Source of the DNA: a virus
DNA length: 64,000 nt
Reading direction: 5' to 3' (one strand)
IMG/VR virus record: IMGVR_UViG_3300025141_008753
Location: 3,677-67,676 of that record
The notes under the pieces were generated by a model. The model searched no databases, had not been told where the DNA came from, and saw nothing but the letters and a program-made list of their open reading frames with translations. This document shows positions 28,077-57,303 of this stretch, one piece after another. How positions within the stretch are numbered: position 1 is the stretch's first letter; the number at the start of each line of letters is the position of its first letter. Both the position numbers and the translations under genes were made by a program.

Positions 28077-28081
28077 ATAAA

Positions 28082-41678: not shown

Positions 41679-42083
41679 ATGGCTACTAATATTGACCCAT
41701 CACGTAACTCACCTTTATCTCGGTCAGGAGAATGGGGAGAGCAGAGGAATTATGCACGGTACACCTTTGAGCCTGCTGACGACTCTAAGATTCAGACTGA
41801 CCCAATACCAACCGCAGGGTTTGAGTACGCTGTTATATTGTGGGACCCGGATTCCGATGGGACAAAACTAGATTTCGATAAAACCTCGTATTTAGCGTAT
41901 GACGCTAACACAGGCACGAAATACATTAAGGAAAACCCAGAGTGCGGTGTGGTTATAGCCACGGAGACCAAAGTAGGTTACATAGGAAAGCCAGCTCTAC
42001 CCGCTCAGTTGGTTATCGAGACCCCCTGTGACGGCTCGCTGGTAGTAGAATTACACAATCCAGTAAACAGGAGAGTGAACTAA
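41679..42083 (+). CDS. Hypothetical protein
   Basis: 134-aa ORF in the structural-like operon. Confidence 0.7.
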   Translation: MATNIDPSRNSPLSRSGEWGEQRNYARYTFEPADDSKIQTDPIPTAGFEYAVILWDPDSDGTKLDFDKTSYLAYDANTGTKYIKENPECGVVIATETKVGYIGKPALPAQLVIETPCDGSLVVELHNPVNRRVN

Positions 42084-42457
42084 TGTTTAATGAAACCAAT
42101 TATATCTCAGCCAGTGCTGTAGACTTTGATGCCAACGGGGATATTGATATGTCTGACACAACATTAATAGCCGCTCCCGGGGCTGGCAACCGTATTGTTT
42201 TATACGGAGTAAACATGTCAATGGCTGGAAGCACGGCTTCTACCGCAGGTAGGTTGTACCTAACTGATGGGGACAAAGGTACTTATACTATTTTGTGGCA
42301 ACTAAGATGCCAAGGAGTATACCCTGTACAAAGTGATATGACATTCCCAGTAGGTGTTAAGCTAAGTGCTAACACCGCCCTCAAGATTACAGGTGAGGAA
42401 GACTCCGCCCAGGCATACGCATTCGGTACAGTTTATTACCGTATTGAGCGCACGTAA
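42083..42457 (+). CDS. Small beta-rich putative virion protein (paralog family)
   Basis: LIAAPGAGNRIVLYG...FPVGVKLSANTAL. Confidence 0.65.
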   Translation: MFNETNYISASAVDFDANGDIDMSDTTLIAAPGAGNRIVLYGVNMSMAGSTASTAGRLYLTDGDKGTYTILWQLRCQGVYPVQSDMTFPVGVKLSANTALKITGEEDSAQAYAFGTVYYRIERT

Positions 42458-42486
42458 GCATAAGTCAAAGCTATTATAAGACTGGG

Positions 42487-42563
42487 GGGGATGTAGCTCA
42501 GTCGGTTAGAGCGCCGGTCTTATATGCCGTAGGTCCCAGGTTCAAGTCCTGGCATCCCTACCA
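42487..42563 (+). tRNA. tRNA-Ile, anticodon UAU
   Basis: Cloverleaf: GGGGATG/CATCCCT acceptor, GCTC/GAGC D-stem, loop CT-TAT-AT, CCAGG-TTCAAGT-CCTGG T-arm, encoded ACCA. Confidence 0.9.
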
Positions 42564-42607
42564 TTATTACGTGCGTAAGTATAAGTCAAAGACTATAATA
42601 ATACTAA

Positions 42608-42647
42608 GGGGTACTAGTCCAGGGTTCGACTCCCAGGCACCCTACCA
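42608..42647 (+). ncRNA. tRNA minihelix (acceptor stem plus T-arm only) or tRNA remnant
   Basis: GGGGTAC-TAGTC-CAGGG TTCGACT CCCAG-GCACCCT-ACCA; TATAAT at 42594-42599 immediately upstream. Confidence 0.55.
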
Positions 42648-42691
42648 CGTAAATATAAGCGTTGCTATAAGTCAAGGCAAGGTATATAACA

Positions 42692-43219
42692 ATGAAAACC
42701 CCATGGATAATAACTAATATGAAACAAGGAACAAAAGCAAATAAATCAGGATTGAAACTTGAATCCCAAGTTGAGAATCTTATCATCAAGAACTTGAAAG
42801 TAGACTCCGAGTATGCGAGTCGCTATAAGTCAAGAGAGGATAATGAGGATATTCTACTTAAGAATGTGCCATACACAAACATATATGGCAATACCAAATG
42901 TCGCTCTGAGTTTGTCCTCTGCTATAAGTCAAGAAAGGTAAGGATAGAATGTAAAACCCAACATTCTGCTGGGAGTGTCGATGAAAAACTACCTTACCTT
43001 TACATGAACTTTACACAAACAATACCAGAATCCGAAGCAATCATTGTGATTGAAGGAAATGGATTTAAGCAAGGGGCAAAAGAGTGGTTGAAAACGAATT
43101 GTAAAGGAACAAAGGTAAAAGTGATGGACTTATCTGAGTTTCAGCGATACATCATTAGTGGTATGCCGAAAATCGTTCCCTCAATACAGAATCGTATAAA
43201 AAACTGGTTGAGCGGTTAG
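42692..43219 (+). CDS. PD-(D/E)XK restriction-endonuclease-like protein
   Basis: SEF...RIECKTQHSAGSVDEKLPY; start may be 42719. Confidence 0.7.
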   Translation: MKTPWIITNMKQGTKANKSGLKLESQVENLIIKNLKVDSEYASRYKSREDNEDILLKNVPYTNIYGNTKCRSEFVLCYKSRKVRIECKTQHSAGSVDEKLPYLYMNFTQTIPESEAIIVIEGNGFKQGAKEWLKTNCKGTKVKVMDLSEFQRYIISGMPKIVPSIQNRIKNWLSG

Positions 43220-43287
43220 CCATTATTATAATAGACATTTCTCCCTAATACAAACTCCTGAATACCCTAAACTACATAAATACTTAT

Positions 43288-43665
43288 ATGAATAACATTT
43301 CGTTTCGACTAAACATGGATGATGATGAGGTATTTGCCTTTTTCAATATTCTACCTTTGGCTCGCATAACTGCGTCAGAGAAAGAACGAAAAGCGGTTAT
43401 GAGAATGATGGGATTCACAAGTGAGTCTTTATTTGTGAAAGAACTTGATTCTAGTAAGGCTATGCTAGAGCAATACTCTATACTATTATACCTCACGCAT
43501 TTGAGAACAGAAGATAAAGCCTTGAGTAATTTTTTTAAGCGACTAACTTGGTTAGATAAGGAAATGGAACAAAGGGTTAGAGATATGTTGTGGATTGAAA
43601 ATGACGCTCCTAGTAACGAAGAGTTGTCTAAATGGTTTGAGATTGAGTCCGACAAAGAGTTGTAA
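43288..43665 (+). CDS. Hypothetical protein
   Basis: 125-aa ORF. Confidence 0.7.
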   Translation: MNNISFRLNMDDDEVFAFFNILPLARITASEKERKAVMRMMGFTSESLFVKELDSSKAMLEQYSILLYLTHLRTEDKALSNFFKRLTWLDKEMEQRVRDMLWIENDAPSNEELSKWFEIESDKEL

Positions 43666-43682
43666 TCTGAGGTCGTGGGCGT

Positions 43683-43763
43683 GTTCGTAAGTATAGGCGG
43701 GCAAAGGACTTACGAACGCCATTTTACCCCCTGAGCGTAACTGCTTTGCTGTAAACGACTTAC
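43683..43763. promoter_or_regulatory. Two 27-bp dyad sites GTAA(G/C)-N17-CTTAC upstream of the early promoter
   Basis: 43687-43713 (arms extend to GTTCGTAAGT/ACTTACGAAC) and 43737-43763. Confidence 0.65.
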
Positions 43764-43823
43764 ACGAACCTGTAATATAAAACAAGTTTATGTAAGTATT
43801 TTTCTATTATGGCATAATAATAC

Positions 43824-43852
43824 TTGACACGAGAGCATTTTTTTGGTATAAT
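43824..43852 (+). promoter_or_regulatory. Consensus sigma70 early promoter
   Basis: TTGACA-17 bp-TATAAT with extended TG; AAGGAGG SD before ATG 43912. Confidence 0.92.
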
Positions 43853-43911
43853 ATATGTTCAATGTGGGACTCACAAACTCCCATTTCAACTCAATACTAA
43901 AAGGAGGTAAA

Positions 43912-44706
43912 ATGTTTGTAATAGATAAAATCAAGAAAGATATGATAGCGGAACTTGTTTCGCAAGAACAAAGTGTTCTATTGACAGGGGCAACAGGCTG
44001 TGGAAAGACTACTTTATGTAAGGAAATCGCTGATGACCTAGACATGAATGTGGTTATTGTAAACATGGGTTCGACACAAGATGCTCGCACTACACTAATT
44101 GGTTATCACACATTACAAGATGGTGAAACCAAGTTTGAGAAATCTGCTTTCATAAATGCGATTCAACAAGAAAATACTTTGATTATTCTTGATGAGTTGA
44201 GTAGAGCAAGTGATGATGCGTATAACATTATCTTCCCACTTTTGGATTTTCGTAAAGAGGTTCATGTAGAAGAAACAGGTGAAACTATTAAAGTTGCTGA
44301 TGGCGTTAGATTTATCTCTACTGCCAATGTAGGTTTGGAATACTCATCTGCTCGTTCTATTGACAGGGCTTTACAAGACCGATTTATGATTTTCAACATT
44401 CCATACATGACAGGAAAAGAGTTGAAAGGATACATTAAGACTGTTCATGGTAAGGAGATTGCTTCTTCTATGGCTAACTTGTGTAGTGTTTATGATTATA
44501 GTCATCAACAATACGAAAAGTCTCGCATTTCTGCGAAAATGTCTCCTCGTATGATTCTAAACTGTTGTAGTTTAGTTGGTAAGTTTACTGATGCTGAAGT
44601 TATGAACAATGTTTTGTTGTCTATGTTTGAGCAAGATAGCAGTAGCATTACTTCTGACGCAAACATTATGCGTGAATACGCTGATTCTTTAGGAATGTTT
44701 AACTAA
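43912..44706 (+). CDS. MoxR/CbbQ/CobS-like AAA+ ATPase
   Basis: GATGCGKT, LDELSRA, STANVG, DRALQDRF. Confidence 0.9.
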   Translation: MFVIDKIKKDMIAELVSQEQSVLLTGATGCGKTTLCKEIADDLDMNVVIVNMGSTQDARTTLIGYHTLQDGETKFEKSAFINAIQQENTLIILDELSRASDDAYNIIFPLLDFRKEVHVEETGETIKVADGVRFISTANVGLEYSSARSIDRALQDRFMIFNIPYMTGKELKGYIKTVHGKEIASSMANLCSVYDYSHQQYEKSRISAKMSPRMILNCCSLVGKFTDAEVMNNVLLSMFEQDSSSITSDANIMREYADSLGMFN

Positions 44707-45998
44707 TGAACGAAAGGGAAATAGACGCAACACTTATGAATAAGTGGTTGGGGGATAAGAAAATTACAGACTTATCTCCTAAGACTCTCTATGATATTCA
44801 GACTTTGATTGAGTATTACAGAGATGTGATTGTTCCCAATGTAGATGTGAAAGTTGGATTTCCTGTTGAGGGTATCCCATGTGCTGATACGGATAAGAAA
44901 GAAATCTTTATACCATATCATATGTTGAAAGAAGGTCGTGTTGATGAAACCATTGGTGCGATGATTCACGAACTAAGGCACATTGAAGATACTCCTGTAA
45001 AGGAAAAAACCGTAGCACCTATTTGGTCTTTACTTAATAAGATTCTAAATAGTCTCAAACTAGACAATGGAAAGACGATTGCGGAAGTTGTATTTTCAGA
45101 TTCATCATATACGCTAAACGCTATTTTGCGTGAGCCTAAAGATGATGAGAGATATGACCCAAATCTGTTTTTTCTTCGTGAAGCGTGTGGAGTCCTTTTC
45201 GGTTTAGCAAATGCGACTGAAGATGTTAGGATTGACACTAACACTCCCCCAAACCTAAAAAAGTATATCGACAAGATAGACAAAAATGCTTTTGAGAAGT
45301 TTGAGGAAGCACGACAGAAAGGGGACATTGAGGATTGGGATTCTTTACATACCATGTTGTTCCGTTTCATATTTCATCATAAAGGTTACTACAATGACCC
45401 TTTGATTGAAAAGATTTCTCCTACAACAGAAGAAATCTGTGAGATGGGTTCTGTTGAAGCAATCACAAATGTGTTTGATAGATTCAGAGATACTTGCCAA
45501 GAAGAAGTTGCCAAACTATTTAATCAGTATGTTCCACCACAACCTAATGATGGCGATGGGGAAGATTTGATGGATATGTTTGATGACTATGTTGGAGATA
45601 TGGTAAACGAAGAACTACAAAATGACCTTGCTAACCAAGCAGGAGATGATGGTGGTGCTACAAAAGGTATTACCTTAGAAGAGAAAAGTGTAGGAGATTT
45701 TGCTAAGACGCACGATACAACTACTGAAATAGAACAAACAGAAGGCGAGAAAACAATGTCGCATGATGACGCTGTTGAAAATGGGCAAACACAATGTAAG
45801 CCCTTCGCCAAAAAGGAAACTCCAATGAAGGAGTTTGCTAAAACAATGAACGCTGATGCTAGGACACAACTAATATCAGCAGAACTAAATGCTCAAATCC
45901 AAAACTTCTCTAACATACAAGTCCATACGACTACTGAGAACTTTGGAAGAGACACAAACATAACTTACGATACCGTCATTTTTGACGCAACAAAATAA
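44706..45998 (+). CDS. CobT-like N-terminal HExxH domain protein with an acidic linker
   Basis: GAMIHELRH and NATEDVRID, typical of the N-terminus of MoxR-partner VWA proteins. Confidence 0.7.
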   Translation: MNEREIDATLMNKWLGDKKITDLSPKTLYDIQTLIEYYRDVIVPNVDVKVGFPVEGIPCADTDKKEIFIPYHMLKEGRVDETIGAMIHELRHIEDTPVKEKTVAPIWSLLNKILNSLKLDNGKTIAEVVFSDSSYTLNAILREPKDDERYDPNLFFLREACGVLFGLANATEDVRIDTNTPPNLKKYIDKIDKNAFEKFEEARQKGDIEDWDSLHTMLFRFIFHHKGYYNDPLIEKISPTTEEICEMGSVEAITNVFDRFRDTCQEEVAKLFNQYVPPQPNDGDGEDLMDMFDDYVGDMVNEELQNDLANQAGDDGGATKGITLEEKSVGDFAKTHDTTTEIEQTEGEKTMSHDDAVENGQTQCKPFAKKETPMKEFAKTMNADARTQLISAELNAQIQNFSNIQVHTTTENFGRDTNITYDTVIFDATK

Positions 45999-46012
45999 CA
46001 AAGGAGATTACA

Positions 46013-46759
46013 ATGGTTAATAAACCCGAAATGTATCACATGGAGCATTACTTAAAAGATGCCCAATCACTACCCAAAGAAGCACTTGCTATCGTGTCCG
46101 AACAAGATATGTTAGGATATGAAAAGGAATACGCAGTTTACCAAAAGATTCAACAAGAGGCGGTTCAGAAATGTTCAACTCTTGTGAGCGAAGTAAAAGA
46201 GCGTATAAGTGTTTTGTTTGGAGGAAACTACTCTAAGCAATATAAGTATTTTGATAGAGCAGTTATGGGGGGCGAGATTTTGACCGACCAACATAACAGT
46301 TTGTTCCCTAAGCCAAATGTGGTTCGTGATTTAGTAGAAACTGCTAAACTGCGATGCCCTAATATCCAAACAGATAATAGTGTTGGTGGACGCAGTAATG
46401 AGAGTGTAGAAGAAATGAACTCAGCAGTATCATACTTGCTAGGAGAAGGTCTTACTCTTAATACTGATTTTACTGTTGGTAACGCTGTTGAAGTAGCGAA
46501 AGCAAGAAAGGCTACGGAGTTTCATGCTAACATGGCTTCAAAACTTAGAGGATACTTAGATGGAACGAAATTTCCTAAAATGGCGATGAAGGATAACTTC
46601 AAGGGAACAAGTTGTGTTGATGACGATTGTTTAAGTGAACACATTAAGTTTGATGCTATACATGACAAGTTTGACTGTAAATGTGGCAGTAATTCTTACA
46701 AAGGTTGTGTAGGAACAAACGCCGAAGGGTGTTGGGAGTTTTCTGTAACTGATGCCTAG
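46013..46759 (+). CDS. Hypothetical protein with a Cys-rich C-terminus
   Basis: 248 aa, AAGGAG SD. Confidence 0.75.
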   Translation: MVNKPEMYHMEHYLKDAQSLPKEALAIVSEQDMLGYEKEYAVYQKIQQEAVQKCSTLVSEVKERISVLFGGNYSKQYKYFDRAVMGGEILTDQHNSLFPKPNVVRDLVETAKLRCPNIQTDNSVGGRSNESVEEMNSAVSYLLGEGLTLNTDFTVGNAVEVAKARKATEFHANMASKLRGYLDGTKFPKMAMKDNFKGTSCVDDDCLSEHIKFDAIHDKFDCKCGSNSYKGCVGTNAEGCWEFSVTDA

Positions 46760-47672
46760 AAGTAATACCGACAACATTTCCCTCTGTAAAGAGGGAATGT
46801 TCTCCGTCCAAGATTGGAGGACAGAGGATAACAAACATCTCCGAGATGTTATGTATAACCGATTCAAGAATCAAGTTTCATTGCTTCTTGAAAGTAAAAA
46901 ACCAAAAGCCTTTCACTCAACTAAAGGTCGATTAGACCCTCGTAGAGCGTATAGGAGTCCGTTTAGTGATAATATCTTTTTACAAACTACAAAAGTGCCT
47001 AATGGAGATACTACTATCGTCATGTTAATTGACGGTAGTGGTTCTATGGATTGTGGCGTGGAAGTCTTTGGGAAAGGATATACTCGTATTGGTGTGTGTA
47101 ATGCTATTGTATCCGCTTTTTCTAAAGCGGTAAACGATGTGTTAGGTAATGAAATCAAGATTGAAGTGTTCCTAAAGTCTGCCCCTTCCTATCATGGTAA
47201 GGCAATCACAGGAACTGATAACGGAAGTTTTGTTACTCTTACAAGAGTGTTTAGTAACTCTAATAAGAACTTGGACTTTGATAAAATCTTGAAGTTAGAT
47301 TGTGTTTCTCCCATTAAGAGAGGTGGTAGCAACGATGGCAGTTATACTGCTGAGTATGCTGTGTTACCTGCTTTGTTAAAATGGATGAATAAGAACATTG
47401 TTACGAAGAATGTGGTTCTGTTTAATCTAACTGATGGAGATGCGTATTGCTCTTTGGGCAGTAACAATATGAGTTTCAATGACGAGGAAAATAAGCAAAT
47501 GCGAATCAAGTATTTGAGAAATGTTCCTAACGCAACAATGTCTATCGGTGGCAGAAGTAATCATAACCATATGACCAATGTGTATGGGCAGAATGTGATT
47601 GAATGTGATGACGATGGTTTTCATGTTAAAATGTTTAATACCTTTATGACCTTTATTGGAGAAGCACTATGA
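46752..47672 (+). CDS. VWA (MIDAS) domain protein
   Basis: GRLDPRR, LIDGSGSM (DxSxS), LTDG. Confidence 0.85.
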   Translation: MPRSNTDNISLCKEGMFSVQDWRTEDNKHLRDVMYNRFKNQVSLLLESKKPKAFHSTKGRLDPRRAYRSPFSDNIFLQTTKVPNGDTTIVMLIDGSGSMDCGVEVFGKGYTRIGVCNAIVSAFSKAVNDVLGNEIKIEVFLKSAPSYHGKAITGTDNGSFVTLTRVFSNSNKNLDFDKILKLDCVSPIKRGGSNDGSYTAEYAVLPALLKWMNKNIVTKNVVLFNLTDGDAYCSLGSNNMSFNDEENKQMRIKYLRNVPNATMSIGGRSNHNHMTNVYGQNVIECDDDGFHVKMFNTFMTFIGEAL

Positions 47673-48214
47673 TTTCTAATGAACAATGGGAAAAGGTGGA
47701 GAAAAAGTATAAAAAACTTATGTGGCACATCTCGCACAGAATCGGACAAGACCCTATCACAAATGATAAGGCAGATTCTTACCAAGAGTTAAGCATAACT
47801 TGTTTAGACGCAATCCGAACTTTTGCCAAATCAACAAATACAGAGTTTGATGACTTCTTTGATACAGTAGCATTTGATAAGTATATTAAAACTTGTCTGT
47901 GGAACAAAAAGAATAATCAAGGAATGAAGATTGTAAAGAGAGAACCTTTGCGTAGGCAAATAACGATTGAAGAAAGTTTACTTACTGAGAAAGCGATAAA
48001 CCCAAAAGAGGCTTTTGAACCTTTCGGATTAGAAAACTTTGATGCTAACTTACAAGAAATCATTGACGCTATCCAACAAGATGGCAAGATGATTAAGCCA
48101 AGCGGTAGAATAAATGTCAATCGCATGGCAACATACACAAACAAACCAAAGTCGCAAATCAAACATAGCATTGAACGACTACAAAAACAACTAATAAATG
48201 ATTTCGGAGAATAG
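47669..48214 (+). CDS. Sigma-factor-like protein (region 2 plus C-terminal HTH-like segment)
   Basis: YKKLMWHIS...DSYQEL...AIRTF...FDKYIKTCLWN. Confidence 0.6.
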   Translation: MISNEQWEKVEKKYKKLMWHISHRIGQDPITNDKADSYQELSITCLDAIRTFAKSTNTEFDDFFDTVAFDKYIKTCLWNKKNNQGMKIVKREPLRRQITIEESLLTEKAINPKEAFEPFGLENFDANLQEIIDAIQQDGKMIKPSGRINVNRMATYTNKPKSQIKHSIERLQKQLINDFGE

Positions 48215-48216
48215 AA

Positions 48217-49086
48217 ATGGCTAAAATAACTAATAAAACAATCCCTGTGGAAGCAACGATTACCACATTAAAAGGTGTAATGACCATCATCGAACTTTTG
48301 AGGACTGCCAACAATGTGTTTGACAGAGCAGGTTTTGAGAGTCCTTACAAAATGAATGACAACGATTTGGGTTTGCTTGCTTTTGGAATGGCATTATTTG
48401 ATGGTAGTATCGACAGTTACCGACATGATGGTATTCCTGACGAGGTTCTTAAACCATTTAAGCCTTTGGTTGAATGGGTTAATGAAGAAGGAAATAGTGG
48501 TGTAACTAAGGTGTTTACTTCTTTTGTTGATACTGATAAGGTTGCTGTAAAGTTTGTTTATACTGCGAATAAGTTTGGTGTAGCAATCTCTAGGGGTTAC
48601 TTACTAGACCTTGTTGCTAGGTATAACAACTTGGAACAAGAGCATAACAAGAAAACTGAAAATAGAAACGATTGGAGGAGAAACTTGCGTGTAGAATCTT
48701 CATGGTTTGTTCCACGAATCCTTGATGTAGCAAACGCACTTCGTGAGTTGGACACTAACATCGCAGAGAGTAACATTACTTTCTTCGATAGAACTCTCTT
48801 TAAGAATAGAGCAGGTCGTGGTTACAGTTATTACTCAAGGGGAACAGACTATTTGACTAGCCCACAAAGCAATCCATACCTTTCGCAGAGATACGAACAA
48901 GAAACTGTAAAGAATATTTTAATGGGAACTTATGGAGAACATTATAAGGAATCCGATTTGAGTAATATCAAAAGAGGTTCTTTAGATTATCGTGAAAAGG
49001 GTTTTCCTTTGCCTGTGGCACAAGCAGAACTTATCTATTCACGAAACTATAACAGTAAACTGAAAGGAGTAGAAACAAATGCCTAA
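48217..49086 (+). CDS. Hypothetical protein
   Basis: 289 aa, GGAG SD. Confidence 0.75.
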   Translation: MAKITNKTIPVEATITTLKGVMTIIELLRTANNVFDRAGFESPYKMNDNDLGLLAFGMALFDGSIDSYRHDGIPDEVLKPFKPLVEWVNEEGNSGVTKVFTSFVDTDKVAVKFVYTANKFGVAISRGYLLDLVARYNNLEQEHNKKTENRNDWRRNLRVESSWFVPRILDVANALRELDTNIAESNITFFDRTLFKNRAGRGYSYYSRGTDYLTSPQSNPYLSQRYEQETVKNILMGTYGEHYKESDLSNIKRGSLDYREKGFPLPVAQAELIYSRNYNSKLKGVETNA

Positions 49087-49669
49087 TTGGACATTTAATA
49101 ACTTGGAAGTTGAAGGGAATGAAGCAAGCCGTAAAAAGTTTGCTTCAGACCACAAGAGTGTTAGGAAAACTTGGAAAAACGACAAACAAGACGGTTGCGA
49201 AACAGAACTTGATTTTTCAGCGAGTGTTTGGGATTCTGAATACGCTAAGAATCATAAATACTCTACTGATGGATACAGTTGGTGTTGTGAGCATTGGGGA
49301 ACTAAATGGAACGCTTGTGAAGTTGATACCTATGATGATGGTGTAATGTTACATTATAGTTTTGATACGGCATGGAGTCCTCCTCACGATTGGCTTTTAG
49401 AAGCATCAAAGAAGTATCCTAATCTAACTTTCACTCTCACAGCCACAGAAGAAAGTGATGCTTTCTTGTATGGTGTAGAAGTAAGTAATGGTAAAATACT
49501 AAAACAGTATGACACAGGAGATGTTTTAGGTGCTGTAATGGAAAAAGCAGATATAACATTAGAACAACGAGTAGAATTTAATTCTAGTAATTGGTATGAC
49601 GATGATGAATTACGAGAAATCTACTCATCAACTCAACACGAGATTTTAGGAGATAAAAAATCATGGTAA
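49079..49669 (+). CDS. DUF1281/YubB ferredoxin-like domain protein
   Basis: MPNWTFN, WCCEHWGTKWNA, FDTAWSPP. Confidence 0.8.
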   Translation: MPNWTFNNLEVEGNEASRKKFASDHKSVRKTWKNDKQDGCETELDFSASVWDSEYAKNHKYSTDGYSWCCEHWGTKWNACEVDTYDDGVMLHYSFDTAWSPPHDWLLEASKKYPNLTFTLTATEESDAFLYGVEVSNGKILKQYDTGDVLGAVMEKADITLEQRVEFNSSNWYDDDELREIYSSTQHEILGDKKSW

Positions 49670-49899
49670 AGAAAAAAGAAAAACGATATGTAGTGGCACG
49701 AAAGTGTCATGCTATTGAATGGGTATTTGTAGATGCGACTACTGAAAAGGAAGCGGTTAAGTTCGCTAAACATAGTGATGATGTTGCGTGTGGTCATTTG
49801 GAGTTCGCAGGTTATCAAGATATAAAAACTTGGACTGCCGAAGAACTAGCACAGCCAAAACCAAGTGAGGTTCGATATGGAGATGTTTGTGATGACTGA
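49663..49899 (+). CDS. Hypothetical protein
   Basis: 78 aa, AGGAG SD, VDATTEKEAV. Confidence 0.65.
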   Translation: MVKKKEKRYVVARKCHAIEWVFVDATTEKEAVKFAKHSDDVACGHLEFAGYQDIKTWTAEELAQPKPSEVRYGDVCDD

Positions 49900-50101
49900 T
49901 AACATTACGAAGAAAACTAATATGATAAAATGTCCTGTGTGTAGTGGCACAGGCATACAGGAAGAAACCATGAAAGGTTACCGTAGATACAAATGTTGGT
50001 GCTGTGAAGGCGCAAGATTTATAATGAGTTCTTCCGTAACAGAAACAGAACAAGAAACAGAACAAGAAACAGAACAGGAGGATGAAAATGAACAAGGATA
50101 A
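49892..50101 (+). CDS. Small DnaJ-type zinc-finger-like protein with an acidic tail
   Basis: CPVCSGTG...CWCCEG; TEQE x3. Confidence 0.6.
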   Translation: MTDNITKKTNMIKCPVCSGTGIQEETMKGYRRYKCWCCEGARFIMSSSVTETEQETEQETEQEDENEQG

Positions 50102-50921
50102 GATTGCTATGTTAGCAAAAGATTTAGATGACAGGAAACTAGAATACCCATGCTATGTTGAACCAAAGTATGATGGTGTTCGTGTTCTTGCTAAAGTAAA
50201 CACAGAAGAACAGACTGTGGAGTTTTTCTTCCGTAGTGGGAAAGAGGTTCATACCCTTGACCATTTAGTAGAACCATTATTAGAACTTGATTTAGGAGTT
50301 GAGTATTATGTTGATGGAGAAGTAGTAAACAACGAAGGAGGTTTTATGAAGTGTGTTGGCGATGTTCGTAGAAAGAGCAAGCAAGCACCGCATCTTGAAT
50401 ACCAAATCTTTGATGCTTTCTTTGAGAATGATAGTAGAGATTACTTAACTCGTAAGGAGTTGGTAAAGAATCAAATCTCTACCCATATTTCTGGTGTGAT
50501 AGATTATGTTATACATAAGAAATGTTGCTGTATCGAAGAAGTGTTGGCATTCAAAGACCTTTGGGAAACTATGGATTCTAATGTTGAAGGTGTGATGGTT
50601 AAGAAAAATACTTTGTATCAGCACAAACGCACTTGGGATTGGATGAAAATCAAAGATGAACTATCGGTAGATTTCCCTGTCGTAGATGCGTATGAGGGAA
50701 AAGGAAAATACGATGGTATGTTAGGAGGACTTATTGTTGAGAATCCACAAACAAAGGTTCGGATTCGTGTCGGTGGTGGCTATAATGATGAGGAACGATA
50801 TTCTTTTTGGAATGACCTTCCTACATACATCGGAAAAACCGCCGAAGTAAAATACCAATACATGACTCCAAAGGGTTCACTTAGACACCCTGTTTTCAAG
50901 GGTTTCAGAATAGACAAGTAA
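50088..50921 (+). CDS. lig: Minimal ATP-dependent DNA ligase
   Basis: EPKYDGVR, VDGE, IFD, EGVMVK, WMKIK, LRHPVF. Confidence 0.93.
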   Translation: MNKDKIAMLAKDLDDRKLEYPCYVEPKYDGVRVLAKVNTEEQTVEFFFRSGKEVHTLDHLVEPLLELDLGVEYYVDGEVVNNEGGFMKCVGDVRRKSKQAPHLEYQIFDAFFENDSRDYLTRKELVKNQISTHISGVIDYVIHKKCCCIEEVLAFKDLWETMDSNVEGVMVKKNTLYQHKRTWDWMKIKDELSVDFPVVDAYEGKGKYDGMLGGLIVENPQTKVRIRVGGGYNDEERYSFWNDLPTYIGKTAEVKYQYMTPKGSLRHPVFKGFRIDK

Positions 50922-50923
50922 AG

Positions 50924-51373
50924 ATGAGTAGTAATTGTAACGAGTGTAACGAATGTTTTACAGGGTGTGTATTTTGTGATGCCACAGGTATAAAAACTGA
51001 CCATCACATTATCGTGAAAGATAAATACCCAATAACGAAAGGACATTTGCTTGTTGTTCCTAAACGCCATTTACTTCATGTTTCACAGTATGAGGTTCAA
51101 GAATGGAGTGATTTACATAATGCTATCAGCGAAGCAAAACAAATGTGTTCTTTCGCTACTGATTTTAACATTGGAGTAAACGAGGGAACATACGCAGGGC
51201 AAACAGTAAATCATTTACATTGGCATATTATTCCACGAACAGAAAATGATGGTGGGAAACCTTGTGGTGTTAGAAATGTTTTTCCTAATAAAGCAGACTA
51301 TCGCAAAGAAGCACAAACAGAAACAGATGGGGAAGAAGAAACTTTTAACCATTACTACACAGGAGATTACTAA
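50924..51373 (+). CDS. HIT-family nucleotide hydrolase
   Basis: CVFC, GHLLVVPKRH, AGQTVNHLHWHIIPR. Confidence 0.92.
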   Translation: MSSNCNECNECFTGCVFCDATGIKTDHHIIVKDKYPITKGHLLVVPKRHLLHVSQYEVQEWSDLHNAISEAKQMCSFATDFNIGVNEGTYAGQTVNHLHWHIIPRTENDGGKPCGVRNVFPNKADYRKEAQTETDGEEETFNHYYTGDY

Positions 51374-51676
51374 ATGAAACTAATAGGAATGATAATGTTG
51401 GCAACAATGATTGTGCCACTAAAAGTAGAGATTGAAGCAGTAACAGGTGGAGTATTCTATGTTGAAGCATGGGATTGCCAAGCAGGGTTACTCGTAAAAG
51501 GAACTAAGGAAAAGAAGGTTATGTTCAACATGGAACATATCCTCTACGCAGAAGAGAAAGGAAAGTATACTGTTATTACCGTTGAAGATGGTAATGATAC
51601 TAGACAGTTCTTAATCAAAATGAAGTTTGATGATGCCATGAAAGGTATTATCTCAACATATCACAAAGGAACTTAA
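51374..51676 (+). CDS. Hypothetical protein, possible signal peptide
   Basis: 100 aa, AGGAG SD. Confidence 0.65.
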   Translation: MKLIGMIMLATMIVPLKVEIEAVTGGVFYVEAWDCQAGLLVKGTKEKKVMFNMEHILYAEEKGKYTVITVEDGNDTRQFLIKMKFDDAMKGIISTYHKGT

Positions 51677-51690
51677 CAAAACAAAAACAA

Positions 51691-51870
51691 ATGAAAACAA
51701 CAAGCAAATACAGAATACGAAAGAGATTCAGCAACAGCACAAAGGCTGAGAAATACATGGAACAGTTAAGTAAAACTGTTGATAACCTATCGGTTATGAA
51801 GCGTAAGTTTATCGGTAAGGATAAAACTCGTTTCTATGTCCGAGAACTTGTAAGAAAAGGGAGTAAGTAA
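51691..51870 (+). CDS. Small basic protein (59 aa)
   Basis: Manually translated MKTTSKYRIRKRF...; TAATG coupling to the next ORF. Confidence 0.55.
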   Translation: MKTTSKYRIRKRFSNSTKAEKYMEQLSKTVDNLSVMKRKFIGKDKTRFYVRELVRKGSK

Positions 51871-52058
51871 TGGATTACAGAGATACTAAAGAGCATTACG
51901 CTAAGAAGGAAGATGATTTGACGAAACGCCAAATGTATACTGCTGACGAGTGGAACGAGATGTGCCGAGAAGCAGACTCCTCAGCACGAATGATGGCTTG
52001 CGTTATGACTTTAACTGCTGTTACTGTTTTCGGAGGTCTAGTATGGTTATGCCTGTAA
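51870..52058 (+). CDS. Small protein with a C-terminal TM segment
   Basis: 62 aa, GGGAG SD. Confidence 0.6.
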   Translation: MDYRDTKEHYAKKEDDLTKRQMYTADEWNEMCREADSSARMMACVMTLTAVTVFGGLVWLCL

Positions 52059-52354
52059 CATCTCCTCAACAAAACGGGCTTCCTCCTTTACGCAAACACA
52101 CACATGGCTATATGGTTTTCGTAACATCAAAGAATGCGTTTTGGGGAAAGAAAGAAGCGTGGACTATGCTAGGTTCTTCTTGGGGATACCCTTACGAAAT
52201 ACTAGGTTTTGCGATAAACAAAGCAAAGCACTATTCACAACATCACAATCTTAATAAGCCGTCCACTATGAACGATGGGTTTGAGTCGTGTGTTGTGAAC
52301 CTCCAAACAGGTGAAACTGAATGGACTTCTTGGGATAACAAACCCACAACTTAA
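52043..52354 (+). CDS. Hypothetical protein
   Basis: GGAGG SD before ATG 52043. Confidence 0.6.
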   Translation: MVMPVTSPQQNGLPPLRKHTHGYMVFVTSKNAFWGKKEAWTMLGSSWGYPYEILGFAINKAKHYSQHHNLNKPSTMNDGFESCVVNLQTGETEWTSWDNKPTT

Positions 52355-52364
52355 TAATAAAGAA

Positions 52365-52622
52365 ATGATTAAAACAGATACAAAAAGTGCTTTGACACTA
52401 ATTCTAATGTTCGCTTTGGGCTTTATGGCAGGAGACTTGGTAAATGACCTTACCTACGAATCCCCTACAAAGCAAATGAAGCAACGACAAAACCGTATGG
52501 AGTTTCAGCGATACGAATATGACCAAAACATGGGTCAAGATGAGTATTACCGAAATAAGCGTAAGGAGATGAAGCGAGATGGAAATCGTCCTTCTAACCT
52601 CAAACAACGCAACTCGGCATAA
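52365..52622 (+). CDS. Small membrane-anchored protein
   Basis: N-terminal hydrophobic helix; followed by a hairpin. Confidence 0.6.
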   Translation: MIKTDTKSALTLILMFALGFMAGDLVNDLTYESPTKQMKQRQNRMEFQRYEYDQNMGQDEYYRNKRKEMKRDGNRPSNLKQRNSA

Positions 52623-52631
52623 AAGTAATAA

Positions 52632-52672
52632 AAGGGCGGTATCTCCAGAATCAAAAGTGAGATACTGCCCTT
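52632..52672 (+). terminator. Hairpin, probable terminator of the early operon
   Basis: AAGGGCGGTATCTC...GAGATACTGCCCTT; the U-tract is weak. Confidence 0.55.
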
Positions 52673-52684
52673 AACCTTGTATAG

Positions 52685-53038
52685 ATGATAACTGAACACA
52701 CAGTAGATAATCACATGAAACTAAACATAGACATAAGCACAGAAGAACTATATTCCATACAACAACTACTTAGGATAACTAACAAACATATAGAAGCAGA
52801 AAAGGATGATATAGACCATGAAACAGCAGAGTTCCTAGACCATATTACCAAGCAATGCGAGTCCGTATTAGAGAAAGGACATAGTGCCTTTGGTAGTGTT
52901 GCTAAAAGTCAAAGCCCTCTAGTAGGAACACACATTGCTAGTGAGATATACCCCCTCCCCCATTGGGAAGAAGTAGAGGGTAATGTTGCTATAAGTCAAA
53001 GCACCTCCCCTGAGAAGAAGAACCCCTTTTGGGAATAA
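52685..53038 (+). CDS. Hypothetical protein
   Basis: 117 aa; contains two copies of the GCTAWAAGTCAA motif. Confidence 0.5.
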   Translation: MITEHTVDNHMKLNIDISTEELYSIQQLLRITNKHIEAEKDDIDHETAEFLDHITKQCESVLEKGHSAFGSVAKSQSPLVGTHIASEIYPLPHWEEVEGNVAISQSTSPEKKNPFWE

Positions 53039-53630
53039 CATATTACCCATAGTAGGGGTAAGATAGGGGTAAAACATATATGTATAATATAGACTCTGCT
53101 ATAAGTCAAGGCTTGTCTGTCTAACGCTTCTTACCATATTCTCCTATAAATACCTGTATCTTCTTGTAAGATATGGGTGTTTTTTTATTTTATTTCATAT
53201 TTTTTTATATCTGTTACACGCCTTGTTATAACAACAAAAAATAAAAATAAACTCACACACCCGTATTATGCTATAAGTCAAGATGGCATTTACACAACAT
53301 TAAATGTATTTTTTTTGATTTTCGCTATGATTTATTATCAAAAAATACACCATATATGGCATTTATGATAACATTACATAATGCTGGCAATCCGTTAAAC
53401 GACAATGTAAAAGAGCAAAGAAAAAAGAAAAAAACATAATCCTATGGGGAGAGAAACAACAAACCCCACAGGACTATGCCTATATGAATACTACTTGTAT
53501 ACACTATATGTCATTGAATAACCTATTCTATTTTTTTTCATAAGATGTTGTTGTGATTTTTTATGAAAACAAAAGAGCCGCTCCGTCTGGTTTTCCTGAG
53601 CAGAGGGGTTCTCGCGCAAATCACGGATTT

Positions 53631-53659
53631 ATTATACCATATCGGCGTAACTTTGTCAA
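53631..53659 (-). promoter_or_regulatory. Consensus sigma70 promoter with no downstream ORF
   Basis: TTGACA-17-TATAAT on the minus strand, overlapping a 27-bp dyad site. Confidence 0.8.
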
Positions 53660-53857
53660 TAGTAAAGACTTACAACCGCACAAATAATAATTTTATTTTC
53701 TTTGATTTTTTTTGATTTTGTGCTACTATAACTGTCTTTCGTTCGTAAGTGCTGTGCTCGCCTATACTTAGGCGCGCCCGGGACCGCTAGGCCATTTTGT
53801 CAAGTAAAAAAGGGGGAAAATCCGAAGATAATCCCCCTAGTATGAAACACTCTACAC

Positions 53858-54202
53858 CTAGTCAGCGTTAGCGATTTCTTGAGCAATGTTCTCACTCAAG
53901 GTTTGACGCTCATCTTTCAGATTTCGGAGTTGCTTATTTGCTTCCGAGATTTTAGATTTAGCGATTTCTCCACGCTCAATCCAAGTAGCAACACGATTCT
54001 CAAAATCTTCTACTTTCTGCTCCCATTCCGTATTCCAACGGTTGAACTTGAGCATTGAGTTATTGATTTCACGAATACGCTTGCCGATAGCAAGGATACG
54101 AGGGTCAGCATTAACCGCATCGGCGTTTGCCTTTGCTTGAAGCATTGAAAGTTGCTTCATGGTTTCTGCGATTCTTTGTTCTACGGGACGATGTTTTGCC
54201 AT
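53858..54202 (-). CDS. Coiled-coil hypothetical protein
   Basis: 114 aa, AAGGAG SD, promoter TTGACT-17-TATACT at 54253-54281. Confidence 0.8.
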   Translation of the reverse strand: MAKHRPVEQRIAETMKQLSMLQAKANADAVNADPRILAIGKRIREINNSMLKFNRWNTEWEQKVEDFENRVATWIERGEIAKSKISEANKQLRNLKDERQTLSENIAQEIANAD

Positions 54203-54470
54203 TTTAGTTTCTCCTTTGGGTTATGGGTAATGGTCTTGATTATTGAATACATAGTATACCATAGTTGTTGCTAAAAGTCAAGGATAAAATGGACAAAATG
54301 TTGGAATATTTCAAAAAAAAACTTTACCGGGCTGGCAGCCTGGTGCCTGGGCTGGGACATATAGTATAACATATCCGGTGCTAAAAGTCAAGAACAACCT
54401 TAACCCCTTACCCAGCCTATACTTACACTCGCGTGGGACCGCCCCTCAAGGGCTGCTATAAGTCAAAGGG

Positions 54471-54548
54471 TGGTGGAGGTGGTGGGAATCGAACCCACGT
54501 CCTGACAAGAGCCATGATAGGTTTACCAGTCGAACACCAATCACCCCC
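54471..54548 (-). ncRNA. Mini-tmRNA: tRNA-like domain only, no tag reading frame
   Basis: GGGGGTGATTGGTGTTCGAC 5' end, GGACGTGGGTTCGATTCCCACCACCTCCACCA 3' end, G3-U70 pair, P2 stem CTGGTAA/TTGTCAG closed by a 14-nt loop. Confidence 0.8.
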
Positions 54549-54554
54549 AAAAAT

Positions 54555-54703
54555 GAGCCAAAGAGGATTTCTTTCCATGCTCGCTCGCACCACCCTTCCT
54601 TTTCAAGGCGTGGATGGGCGCTCTGGCATTCCAACCTTCATGGAACTTGCTCTGGAATTCTCCAACCTAGGATGTCCAATGGGTGAGGTTGCCTCTTTGA
54701 CTC
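54555..54703 (-). ncRNA. Unidentified ~150-nt structured RNA upstream of the mini-tmRNA
   Basis: 12-bp terminal stem GAGTCAAAGAGG/CCTCTTTGGCTC, internal stems, begins 7 nt after a consensus -10. Confidence 0.65.
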
Positions 54704-54710
54704 GTTTACC

Positions 54711-54739
54711 ATTATACACGAGCGCACCCGTATTGTCAA
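54711..54739 (-). promoter_or_regulatory. Consensus sigma70 promoter for the ncRNA unit
   Basis: TTGACA-17-TATAAT; further consensus copies at 54819-54847 and 54937-54965. Confidence 0.88.
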
Positions 54740-54972
54740 GTAAAAAATGGGGTTTTTTCATGAAATCTCAACAAATTATGCGAGAACCCCAAAACTCGAA
54801 TTTTAACTCATGCAATATATTATACTACATTTTACCTCCGTTGTCAAGAGAAAAATAGTCTTTCTTTTTTTCAGAGTGTCATTATCGACTCTCAGAGGTG
54901 AAAAACTGCCGGAAAAATCTCCCCTGTTGTGCGTATATTATACCATTTTCCTAGCATATTGTCAAGGGGAAA

Positions 54973-55475
54973 ACGTGTAAAATTCTCCGCTTTTTTACTT
55001 GACAAAATGAGCCTAAACGTGTAAAATTCTCCGCTCAATCATGTAAAACTTTCCGCTCAATCATGTAAAATTCTCCGCTCCCAATCATGTAAAACTTTCC
55101 GCTCAATCATGTAAAATTCTCCGCTCAATCATGTAAAACTTTCCGCTCAATCATGTAAAATTCTCCGCTCCCAATCATGTAAAACTTTCCGCTCGAACGT
55201 GTAAAATTCTCCGCTCGAACGTGTAAAATTCTCCGCTCTAAGTCCTTATTATACCATTTTCCTAGCATATTGTCAAGGGGAAAACGTGTAAAACTTTCCG
55301 CTCTAAGTCCTTATTATATCATTTTCCTAGCATATTGTCAAGGGGAAAACGTGTAAAACTTTCCGCTCGAACGTGTAAAATTCTCCGCTCGAACGTGTAA
55401 AATTTTCCGCTTTTTTTACTTGACAAAATGAGCCTAAACGTGTAAAATTCTCCGCTCGAACGTGTAAAATTCTCC
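54973..55475. repeat. Tandem array, ~17 copies of TGTAAAA(TTCT/CTTT)CCGCT, mostly 22-bp period
   Basis: Direct reading; interrupted by duplicated promoter modules at 55248-55276 and 55313-55341. Confidence 0.93.
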
Positions 55476-55602
55476 AAGTCCTTACTACACCTATACTTAG
55501 GACCGCCCGGGACCGCGCGGCTCGATTTTGTCAAGTAAAAAAGGGGGATTTTAGAAAAAGCGGCGTGGCAGTAGTTCAAGGCTCCCCCAAACCTTTTTAG
55601 AC

Positions 55603-55809
55603 TTAGAAACCTTGAGTGGCTTTCCAAGGACGGGCATTTGACCATCTATGGTTACCCCAATGGTTACCGTCTACCATTTTAGGTAGCATACGGCGAATGT
55701 TAATGTAGCGATTAAGCCAAAAATCAGCGGACTTGCCAGAGCCTTTAGTATAAGCGGACTCAAAGCGACGAGCGCAGAAGAGAGAAAGTTGATTGAGAAA
55801 GTATTTCAT
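55603..55809 (-). CDS. Small hypothetical cassette protein
   Basis: 68 aa; promoter TTGACA-17-TATACT at 55856-55884. Confidence 0.55.
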   Translation of the reverse strand: MKYFLNQLSLFCARRFESAYTKGSGKSADFWLNRYINIRRMLPKMVDGNHWGNHRWSNARPWKATQGF

Positions 55810-55885
55810 TTTATTGAATGCCTAGAGGTAGGACTTTGTTATTTGGTATACGTATAGTATACCACAGCGAGGGCGCTTTGTCAAG

Positions 55886-56122
55886 TTAAAAACCACAAAA
55901 ATTGTAGGCTTTTTCCATAACGATTTGCTGAACATCTGAGTTATCCATGATGATTTCTAACTCATCATTTCCTAGACGAAAGCCGTCAGTCCAAAGTGCT
56001 TCGGATACGAAAGCGTCGCAAAAATCGAAAGCGTCGGTGATATCGACTCCGTCGATGACGATGGAACGGAGGTCTAGGCTTCTGCCTAGAGTGGGAATGT
56101 AGAGGGTATTATTGTTTTTCAT
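55886..56122 (-). CDS. Small acidic hypothetical protein
   Basis: IVIDGVDITDAFDFCDAFVSEA; ATG 9 nt after the -10. Confidence 0.7.
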   Translation of the reverse strand: MKNNNTLYIPTLGRSLDLRSIVIDGVDITDAFDFCDAFVSEALWTDGFRLGNDELEIIMDNSDVQQIVMEKAYNFCGF

Positions 56123-56286
56123 TATGCTAATAGTATAACACAGCGCACCCAATCCGTCAAGTATAAAACAGGAAAAATCTTTAAATATTTGAAGTTTTTG
56201 TAAGTCCTTTGTGCGCCTATACTTAGGACTGTCTCGGACCGCCCAAAATGTGGGTTTAGAGCCCTCCGGCGTGGTCTAATAGGCGA

Positions 56287-56940: not shown

Positions 56941-57078
56941 TATACCTAGTATAACACAGCGCACCCAATCCGTCAAGTATAAAACAGGAAAAATCTTTAA
57001 GTATTTTAAGTTTTTGTAAGTCCTTATGCCACCTATACTTAGGGCTGCCTCGGACCGCTCCAAATGTGGGTTTAGAGC

Positions 57079-57282: not shown

Positions 57283-57303
57283 GCGTATAGTATAACAGAG
57301 CGC

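Follow-up and report, generated by a model that had tools for sequence, protein, structure and literature searches.

In the T5-like phages, restriction reaches the genome only through sites in the first-step transfer (FST) segment, and T5 destroys the host DNA in its first step (PMC10644984). The injection stop signal of these phages is described as an ordered DnaA-box array (10.1101/866236). Murciaviruses, too, are reached by restriction via their first-injected region (PMC12455610). The present analysis concerns a window of 64,000 nucleotides (nt) from a virus, bases 3677–67676 of one viral contig of 67,676 nt in total (IMG/VR record IMGVR_UViG_3300025141_008753), and a block within it, at window positions 42648–53612 (10,965 nt), that is purged of restriction-type words. 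Both this block and the T5 FST segment are segments of about 10 kb with putative takeover genes driven by host promoters. The T5 record has the same order of parts: the FST segment, a non-coding injection stop signal and an early array on the minus strand with many promoters and tRNAs. Arrays of a short motif, of the kind that proteins bind, lie in the non-coding region in both systems; here they stand on both sides and in T5 on one side.

The block also resembles the class I early region of T7, the leading end of a genome whose entry is coupled to transcription. A cluster of same-direction signals lies at the left edge, and all genes are directed inward. The unit encodes a regulator for the following stage of transcription (a candidate sigma factor here, an RNA polymerase in T7), a DNA ligase gene lies near its end, and the terminator is flanked by a second same-direction signal cluster. 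On the other hand, the motif here is no recognisable sigma70 promoter, no homolog of Ocr was found, and beyond the block the gene direction is reversed. SPO1 is likewise a myovirus with an early-gene block of about 11–13 kb behind strong host promoters, according to its annotation. Its terminal redundancy is about 13 kb, whereas the block here is known from a fragment contig without an end repeat.

Palindrome avoidance over whole phage genomes concerns the same kinds of words, and the contig studied here itself avoids GATC and GGCC throughout. The difference is that the other words are avoided only in a cis-delimited segment of 11 kb. The leading region of a conjugative plasmid is the first DNA to enter and carries anti-defence genes. 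In the leading regions of 1751 plasmids, palindromes of 4–8 bp were not consistently depleted, according to a 2026 study (PMC13478746), whereas the depletion in the block is near-total. The literature searched held no description of a comparable local palindrome purge in a phage.

Loss of restriction-type words from the block

The words ACGT, AGCT, CCGG, CGCG, GTAC, TGCA, GATC and GGCC do not occur in the block (0 each), and GCGC occurs once. The initial annotation had reported the first eight as missing from 42651–53600, and all of them count 0 there. For the nine words together, about 212 occurrences were expected from a maximal-order Markov model (42.5+40.1+37.2+30.6+25.7+10.1+9.1+4.5+12.4), against one seen. 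A second null was obtained by shuffling synonymous codons in 17 block open reading frames (ORFs; 9591 nt, 200 shuffles), which preserved the proteins and the codon usage of the block. The shuffled ORFs held the nine words 173 times on average and never fewer than 136 times; the real ORFs hold none. Six-base palindromes followed the same course, with 11 seen in the block ORFs against a shuffle mean of 131 (minimum 105, 60 shuffles). In the whole block, 19 were seen and 168 expected, compared with 503 and 648 to the left of it. The 28 six-base palindromes that contain none of the nine cores were seen 19 times against 113 expected in the block. The ratios of seen to expected words for 4-mers and 6-mers are 0.41 and 0.11 in the block, and 0.85 and 0.78 in the 42.6 kb to its left. 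The palindromes of 4–6 bases are under-represented against both the Markov and the codon-preserving nulls, which is the pattern of type II site avoidance. Such observed-to-expected counts had been proposed as a check in the initial annotation, and they revealed a local depletion that far exceeds what base composition explains.

The loss is not confined to continuous palindromes. The interrupted words CCWGG, GGWCC, CCSGG, GCWGC, GTSAC and CASTG are all absent from the block. A partial depletion was found for AATT (14 seen of 64 expected) and TCGA (10 of 33), and TTAA and CATG are also reduced. Among non-palindromic words, CCAG/CTGG (7 of 40), GGATG (5 of 18) and GGTGA (3 of 10) are low, and some type IIS sites are likewise purged. 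We take CASTG, GTSAC, GCWGC, GGATG and GGTGA to be enzyme recognition sites. The purge thus extends over words of the restriction type, from the G/C-containing 4-mer palindromes and the 6-mers to interrupted and non-palindromic sites.

In the rest of the window the nine words occur at 1.4–3.9 per kb, which agrees with the earlier claim that AGCT, GTAC, ACGT, TGCA and CCGG are frequent in 1–42.6 kb and after 60 kb. The exceptions are GATC (0) and GGCC (2), which are scarce throughout the genome. Outside the block and the adjoining 6.4 kb, they were seen 0 times of 138 expected and 2 times of 98, respectively. Over the whole 67.7-kb contig, GATC is absent against about 170 expected, and GGCC has three sites in the contig outside the block.

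Both edges of the purge are step-like. About 15–25 sites per kb are found up to the last site on the left, an ACGT at 42647, and sites resume with a CGCG at 53613. The sole internal site is the GCGC at 50010. They leave two stretches without any site, of 7363 and 3603 nt, whereas no other such stretch in the window exceeds 549 nt. The purged zone includes the 570 non-coding nt that lie 3' of the last block gene (53039–53612). The adjoining 6.4 kb (53613–60000) are partly purged, with GTAC at 1 of 20 expected and AGCT at 1 of 24. The GC content of the block is 37.1%, against 43.4% elsewhere.

Conservation of the purge in related phages

Relatives were collected with alignments of two block proteins, an AAA+ ATPase and an HExxH protein, which yielded 20+ IMG/VR loci and 76 metagenome loci. 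The genes for the AAA+ ATPase, the HExxH protein, a 248-aa protein, a vWA protein and a candidate sigma factor are syntenic in all six genomes compared. The gene for a 289-aa protein is present in two of the five relatives, and that for a DUF1281_C protein in three. The block proteins are 32–62% identical to those of relatives with the same syntenic block. In four of these genomes (G002–G005, block proteins 32–59% identical) the block measures 10.4–14.8 kb. ACGT, GATC, GGCC and CCGG are at about zero in these four blocks, in most of them AGCT, GTAC, TGCA and CGCG as well, and the rest of each genome is normal. CASTG, GTSAC and GCWGC are purged in 5/5 genomes; GGATG, GGTGA and CCAG/CTGG are purged in 3/5. 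The GC content of the block is 4–5 points lower in four of five genomes. In G001 and others the 4-mers are kept, and the 6-mers are still depleted in the syntenic region. The purge of G005 extends over more than 14.7 kb and begins 8 kb 5' of the AAA gene.

The ratio of seen to expected 6-mers was calculated over 8 kb from the start of the AAA gene in 36 metagenome loci, some of them near-duplicates, with an AAA identity of at least 52% and at least 3 kb downstream. It lies at 0.07–0.37 in 35 of them and at 0.61 in the last (L109). The IMG/VR loci agree. The 19 upstream flanks that could be measured gave ratios of 0.36–1.04, and all six loci with only a distant AAA homolog gave 0.71–0.81. A meta-profile of 42 loci, from which obvious duplicates were removed by hand, displays a trough that is flat between –1 and +9 kb. 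The syntenic block of relatives thus carries the same depletion, a comparison that the initial annotation had proposed. The retention of the purge in the syntenic block of such diverged relatives indicates long-term, position-specific selection with a lineage-dependent set of words.

The initial annotation had offered as its alternative a recent acquisition of the block from a phage under different restriction-modification pressure, considered here as horizontal transfer from a phage that avoids palindromes genome-wide. The lower GC content and the sharp edges would suit such an origin. However, the same gene order and flanks, with a local purge and a drop in GC, occur in relatives that are 32–62% identical, and this evidence overturned the proposal. 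Besides, GATC and GGCC are avoided inside and outside the block alike, the upstream element of the block promoter recurs in the neighbouring array, and no donor purged throughout its genome was found in a phage collection of 50,697 records. A recent acquisition is thus highly improbable.

One further genome, a divergent relative (G006; loci L171 and L172), is 106 kb long and 95% complete, and its terminase is 47–50% identical. It keeps the sigma gene and some copies of the boundary motif, and has neither the AAA+/HExxH/vWA genes nor the palindrome trough. This hints that the purge travels with the AAA+/HExxH/vWA cluster.

Boundary motif

The block is bracketed by an 11-mer, WAWAAGTCAAR, and this bracket is a new finding that holds across the family. 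The 11 copies in the window compare with an expectation of 0.68 and a maximum of 3 among 100 shuffles. They all stand on the plus strand, which is the gene strand, and they form two groups, 42580–42933 and 52903–54467. The left array (42459–42933) has exact copies at 42580, 42666, 42824 and 42923, and a variant, CATAAGTCAA, at 42459. The right arrays (52903–54467) have copies at 52903, 52990, 53100 and 53272, and then at 54272, 54382 and 54457. Both edges of the purge fall inside these arrays. In two relatives, all motif hits lie at the two block edges (12/12 in G002 and 15/15 in G004). Over 47 loci, 210 hits were found on the same strand as the genes and one on the opposite strand. Relative to the AAA gene, 139 of the 210 hits lie at –3 to –0.6 kb and 68 at +7 to +10.7 kb, with none between 0 and +7 kb; the remaining three lie at –9 to –10 kb. 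The copies are often in tandem with a spacing of 16–50 nt (commonly 21–36), and some are within ORFs. An extended form, CTATAAGTCAAG, is specific to G000 and is not kept in the relatives, where the core WAWAAGTCAAR alone is kept.

Two identities of the motif were rejected, the second as a general reading. It is not a DnaA box. It was also checked by eye as a sigma70 promoter of the opposite strand, because its complement has TTGACT; a –10 element at 17 nt was found only in the copies at 54272 and 54382. On the gene strand, five left copies have –10-like hexamers 4–13 nt downstream, and the right copies mostly have none. When viral contigs were scanned for pairs of the motif, 37 stretches were obtained, many of them unrelated; G006 is among them.

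Possible staged exposure of the genome

Once a genome has entered in full, a cut at any position is lethal, and the rest of this genome, of which the contig shows another 57 kb, is rich in sites. The confinement of the purge to the block therefore suggests that only this block meets restriction enzymes before protection is in place. Such an exposure would arise most simply by staged delivery, and the bracketing arrays are consistent with cis signals that mark its limits. Our best explanation, to which we give about an even chance, is a T5- or T7-like staged delivery in which the block is exposed before all other DNA. In this mechanism, the block would be the leading, first-transferred segment, which would lie naked in the host cytoplasm before any phage protection exists. 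Type II enzymes would meet this segment alone, and the remaining DNA would enter, or become accessible, once the block products have acted. The motif arrays would set the limits of the segment, either as binding sites of a protein that pauses or stops entry, comparable to the DnaA boxes in the stop signal of T5, or as entry-driving promoters of the T7 type. The ECF-like sigma candidate of the block would serve the next stage of transcription. The product that disarms restriction may belong to the conserved AAA+/HExxH/vWA trio, or it may be the acidic protein of 125 aa that is encoded close to the left edge. Outside the block, four-base sites number some 20 per kb, and repair after cleavage by a four-base cutter seems implausible. 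A more specific proposal, which we hold tentatively and with some doubt, is a two-stage delivery in a widespread family of marine myoviruses, uncultured and T4-like in their core genes. The segment of about 11 kb would be uncuttable, the 11-mers would act as start and stop signals, and an anti-restriction function of the AAA+, metallopeptidase and vWA proteins would make the sites in the remaining ~95 kb irrelevant.

The initial annotation had likewise proposed first-injected DNA whose products disarm restriction. The purge itself, its restriction-type words and the early operon with a host promoter bore this out in part; no specific anti-restriction gene was identified in the block. After staged exposure as such, a form with long terminal repeats and a rescue operon without staging come next.

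Several results weigh against a staged delivery. At first, the comparison with known systems is considered. The selection against restriction sites in one segment only is far stronger here than in T5, where the ratios for 4-mers and 6-mers are 0.84 and 0.64 in the FST segment and 0.98 and 0.88 in the rest, set beside 0.41 and 0.11 in the block. The earlier statement that the T5 segment is poor in sites thus applies weakly. In T7, the early region (0.77 and 0.45) does not stand apart from the rest (0.75 and 0.48), nor does the terminal repeat of SPO1 (0.93 and 0.74, against 0.92 and 0.74). The 16 FST proteins of T5 had no homolog in window 42001–60500 by tblastn (best E=0.075), and homologs of A1, A2 and dmp are absent accordingly. 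T5 uses DnaA boxes as its stop signal, and none is present in the corresponding region here. Between 41 and 61 kb only one loose match, at 58996, was found, and the window holds 3 against 7.3 expected. The ordered DnaA-box arrays of a T5-type bounding region are therefore missing, while host sigma70 promoters do drive the block genes. Moreover, the genes beyond the block oppose the presumed direction of entry, so that a pure T7-type entry of the whole genome pulled by transcription is impossible.

Second, the packaging genes point elsewhere. The large terminase of G001 is similar to T4 gp17 (31–35% identity), and the replication genes are T4-like (gp32, UvsX). The terminase, together with the portal and the baseplate wedge and hub proteins that G001 also has, identifies G001 as a myovirus. 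A T4-like terminase suggests headful packaging without fixed ends. In T4-type packaging the ends are permuted, so that no fixed segment enters first (PMC12455610). The myovirus-like virion genes, the T4-type terminase and the lack of any sign of a double-depth repeat distinguish the present phage from T5.

Third, no terminus was mapped; the contig is an internal fragment, and the public runs were compared as assembled contigs, in which molecule ends do not show. A single Logan contig spans the left block edge in three of four runs. The depth, which is one k-mer figure per contig, was 84.7 in the block and 92.1 outside, 27.5 and 27.8, and 17.5 and 22.1. Since the block reads at about 1x, there is no support for an 11-kb terminal repeat of virion DNA that has collapsed in the contigs; concatemeric intracellular DNA would likewise read 1x. 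No joint occurs at the block edges in these contigs, and joints and loose ends are found only in the ligase cassette and the promoter array described below.

These data also bear on the possibility that the block is a long direct terminal repeat of the T5 or SPO1 type, with the motif arrays as marks for terminase processing. Such a block would be present at both ends and would always enter first. The same oriented motif at both boundaries would suit a cut-and-copy duplication. The size of 10.4–11.4 kb in four lineages is near that of the repeats of T5 (10.2 kb) and SPO1 (~13 kb), and both of these repeats hold pre-early or host-takeover genes. In contrast, the depth is about 1x rather than 2x in all three comparable runs, an argument that is weak if the DNA is intracellular. 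All six related records checked are called linear without end repeats in IMG/VR, and the G005 purge is longer than 14.7 kb and starts far 5' of the AAA gene. A terminal repeat is judged unlikely.

The ends of other contigs were also inspected. The two ends of the G001 contig were rejected as physical termini, because both lie inside ORFs and do not overlap. At least 10 independent metagenome contigs begin 20–500 nt 5' of the AAA gene, and several contain hardly anything besides the block (for example L095, 9.9 kb). This cluster of contig ends was not accepted as termini and was attributed instead to a repeated upstream element and to the seeding of the search; it may mark a real discontinuity.

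Genes and elements of the block

The block is a tightly packed set of genes on the plus strand. Directly to its left lies a tRNA-Ile gene with the anticodon TAT (42487–42563, plus strand; ARAGORN; Rfam tRNA, 70.6 bits). It is followed by a tRNA-like stub read from the sequence (42609–42650, plus strand), with an acceptor and a T-arm-like part that ends in ACCA. The stub was called by neither ARAGORN nor Rfam, and the last palindrome on the left (ACGT, 42647) lies inside it.

The first gene of the block (42692–43219, plus strand) encodes a PD-(D/E)XK nuclease of 175 aa (Pfam PDDEXK_11, E=4.5e-26), which also gave a weak DpnII match below the cut-off (E=4.6e-4). A homolog with 52% identity is present in G001 at a different genome position. 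G001 (101.7 kb) has no GATC, against 333 expected. Both the present contig and G001 lack GATC and have the same nuclease with its weak DpnII-like match. The nuclease could be a self-sparing degrader of host DNA.

An alternative reading builds on this gene. The selective agent would be early nucleases of the phage itself, or activated by it, which destroy host DNA, and not the restriction enzymes of the host. The block would have to be immune because it is present during cutting, and DNA that arrives later would be absent or protected at that time. The position of the nuclease as first gene, its weak resemblance to DpnII, and the absence of GATC from the contig and from G001, the sole other genome with a homolog, speak for it. 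T5 also degrades host DNA in its first step, as cited above. However, a single enzyme cannot explain more than 40 lost words, and the set of words differs by lineage. G003 and G005 are without GATC as well, and no nuclease homolog was seen in them, although they are only fragments. This reading would still need staged exposure and is therefore a variant of the staged-delivery proposal; it is considered quite improbable.

The second gene (43288–43665, plus strand) encodes an acidic protein of 125 aa with a pI of 4.8. It had no match in Pfam or PHROG, and an Atlas search gave no lead. Weak homologs occupy the same position in G001 and G003. By its position, the protein is a candidate DNA mimic. 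An upstream element follows at 43685–43718 (plus strand; inverted-repeat pairs I2, I3, I8, I14–I16 and I20), which is common to seven promoter cassettes of the minus-strand array, in the orientation that matches transcription. Then comes a perfect extended sigma70 promoter, TTGACA-17-TATAAT with TG (43824–43852, plus strand, 12/12 positions), which drives an operon from the AAA gene to 52.6 kb. This is the perfect promoter of the initial annotation, and some 20 more are present in the neighbouring minus-strand array. A promoter with at least 11 of 12 positions lies 70–100 nt 5' of the AAA gene in all six genomes. The strong Shine-Dalgarno (SD) sites claimed for the block were not confirmed: an SD match of at least 5 nt precedes 19% of block genes and 20% of those to the left, based on crude start calls.

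The operon begins with a MoxR/CobS-like AAA+ ATPase of 283 aa (43855–44706, plus strand; Pfam AAA_5, 1.8e-19; phrog_249). It is the most conserved block gene, with 55–62% identity in relatives. The next gene (44706–45998, plus strand) encodes an acidic 430-aa protein in which H88-E89-x-x-H92 is invariant (alignment A1, 20 homologs). It is a candidate metallopeptidase-like partner of the AAA+ protein. In total, 64 homologs were found. No PDB sequence matched it, and its structural neighbours in the Atlas are phage CobT/VWA clusters, which serve as a lead only. A conserved 248-aa protein with a Cys-rich C-terminus (46013–46759, plus strand) had no family match in Pfam or PHROG. A vWA-type protein of 306 aa follows (46752–47672, plus strand) with a DGSGS MIDAS motif, of which L92-I93-D94-G95-S96-G97-S98 is invariant (alignment A3); a profile search against PDB gave a weak integrin I-domain match (E=0.02). 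The AAA_5 ATPase, the HExxH motif and the DxSxS of the MIDAS together have the composition of a MoxR-metallopeptidase-vWA module.

A MoxR AAA+ ATPase with a metallopeptidase-vWA pair occurs in T4-like jumbo phages, where a role in virion assembly was proposed (Iyer et al. 2021, PMC7824862). The likeness lies in an AAA_5 ATPase beside metallopeptidase-like HExxH and vWA/MIDAS proteins. Here, in contrast, no fusion of peptidase and vWA was found, the two being separate ORFs (44706–45998 and 46752–47672) in all six genomes with the 248-aa gene between them, and the genes belong to an early operon.

The next protein (47669–48214, plus strand; 181 aa) is an ECF-like sigma factor candidate. The initial annotation had called it sigma-like. 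This holds for five of six aligned homologs, which match Pfam Sigma70_r2 (best E=6e-6); the copy in the window itself has no such match at E≤10. Against PDB, SigW matched at E=0.55 only. The genes for a 289-aa protein and a 196-aa acidic protein with DUF1281_C, an Api92-like ferredoxin-like domain, follow at 48217–49669 (plus strand). At 50082–51676 (plus strand) are an ATP-dependent DNA ligase (279 aa), an HIT-family protein (149 aa) and a 100-aa ORF. Pfam and PHROG confirmed the ligase, as they did the nuclease, both of which had been named before. The operon ends with small ORFs of 59, 62, 134, 103 and 117 aa (51691–53038, plus strand), and a terminator-like hairpin with a T-run lies directly 3' of the last gene (53148–53182, plus strand).

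The ligase, the HIT protein and the 100-aa ORF form an accessory cassette. BLASTP detected no homolog of the ligase in any of the five relatives, and among them the HIT protein and the next ORF occur only in G002, with 78–84% identity, though the genomes are otherwise about 35–60% identical. In four public runs the depth of the cassette is 2–7x higher, and contigs break at 50170 and 51620. The raised depth and the breaks on both sides indicate that the cassette is mobile in the population. A joint in these runs 'goes back 1703'.

Taken together, the block is, by its predicted genes, an early operon driven by a host promoter that encodes the AAA+/HExxH/vWA module, the nuclease and the ECF-like sigma candidate. 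This organisation allows another explanation without staging. The whole genome would enter at once, and only the long early operon with its single promoter would have to stay uncut, since one break would silence every gene downstream of it. Staying uncut, it would be expressed so that its products (nuclease inhibitors, the AAA+ and protease proteins, ligase and HIT) could then halt or repair damage elsewhere. The block is indeed about one 9-kb transcription unit with one strong promoter, and the neighbouring array, where each small gene has its own promoter, is only partly purged. An ATP-dependent ligase beside an HIT protein in the block of this phage, and T4-like headful packaging, are also consistent with it. 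However, the five relatives are purged although no ligase homolog was found in them, and only G002 has the HIT cassette. With about 20 four-base palindromes per kb elsewhere, the remaining DNA would probably be shredded within the minutes of a 9-kb transcription, and its correct re-joining would be implausible. The purge of two genes 5' of the promoter and of 570 nt after the terminator is not predicted, nor are the bracketing motif arrays. The probability of such a rescue operon is considered low.

Right flank of the block

Transcription converges on a non-coding region rich in A/T runs (53039–53857), and the purge still extends over the left 570 nt of it. On the minus strand, a perfect promoter with an extended –10 (53659–53631) is directed into this region toward the block end. 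No convincing ORF is found downstream of it (53659–53560), and it may be the source of a small RNA or an antisense transcript.

Beyond it, an array of small genes on the minus strand (53858–60000) is arranged in repeated cassettes with near-perfect sigma70 promoters. About 20 promoters (53631–59765, minus strand) match 10–12 of 12 positions and have TTGACA-17-TATAAT or TATACT, mostly with the extended –10 TG. Each cassette consists of a conserved element, CCTATACTTAGG...GGACCGC, and a small gene. The upstream element shared by the block promoter and seven cassettes indicates that the block and the array form one early promoter class. Yet the array is only partly purged, which indicates that early timing alone is not the cause of the purge. 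The array is highly mosaic in public runs, with many joints that skip or go back and a depth of up to 1500.

Other elements were found in the array. An iteron-like array at 55015–55411 is built from at least 13 units of 22 bp (TGTAAAAYTYTCCGCTC...) and interleaved with two perfect promoters; it could be an origin or a regulator-binding array. A tmRNA-like element of 78 nt lies at 54471–54548 (minus strand; Rfam tmRNA, 67.6 bits, E=1e-24) and consists of the tRNA-like ends of the model only; ARAGORN makes no call for it. A copy of the boundary motif abuts this element, and in G004 a similar sequence comes after a motif copy. At the far end of the array, an exact 17-bp tandem repeat (TGGGACTCCTACAAAAC x 3.4) occupies 59873–59930, where the palindrome density is back to normal.

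Genome context

The contig begins within an ORF and no end repeat was found in it; it is therefore a genome fragment. Relatives reach 101–117 kb, and one record of 101.7 kb (G001) is rated 93% complete. The DNA is assigned to an uncultured marine phage with an estimated full genome of about 105 kb. The contig encodes a T4-like replication and recombination set, namely a split family-A DNA polymerase, a DnaB-like helicase, a gp32-like protein, a UvsX-like recombinase, an SbcCD-like nuclease and a ribonucleotide reductase. The polymerase occupies two ORFs (3364–4338 and 5771–7291) with a glutamine-synthetase-like gene between them (4532–5617). A sugar-nucleotide and glycosyltransferase cluster (15937–28948 and 34717–37034) contains a GDP-mannose 4,6-dehydratase, a UDP-GlcNAc 2-epimerase, several NAD-dependent epimerases and GT2, GT92 and GT1 enzymes. 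Its size is unusual for a phage, and no DNA-modification gene was recognised in the analysis of this cluster. Cultured phages are all distant, with a DNA polymerase identity of at most 29%. Among 50,697 phage records, megablast gave no DNA match to the block, and tblastn gave no match to the HExxH protein.

Significance

Restriction selection on the DNA that enters first is known from experiments on T5-like phages and, since 2025, on marine T7-like phages. A strong compositional signature of this selection is not known to have been described, and T5, T7 and SPO1 barely show one in counts. Here it is near-absolute and sharp-edged, recurs in dozens of contigs from the environment and goes together with a boundary motif that is itself conserved. 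To our knowledge, the broad anti-type-II function is still without an identified gene, even in T5. If staged entry is true, delivery in two steps would also apply to a T4-like lineage for which headful packaging is expected, and a defined cis element for the start and stop of DNA transfer would become available. It would also provide a short list of conserved early proteins as candidates for broad anti-type-II activity. The palindrome trough would then be a sequence-only marker of first-entering DNA and of new anti-restriction genes in metagenomes, and it would offer an easy computational screen for the leading regions of uncultured phages.

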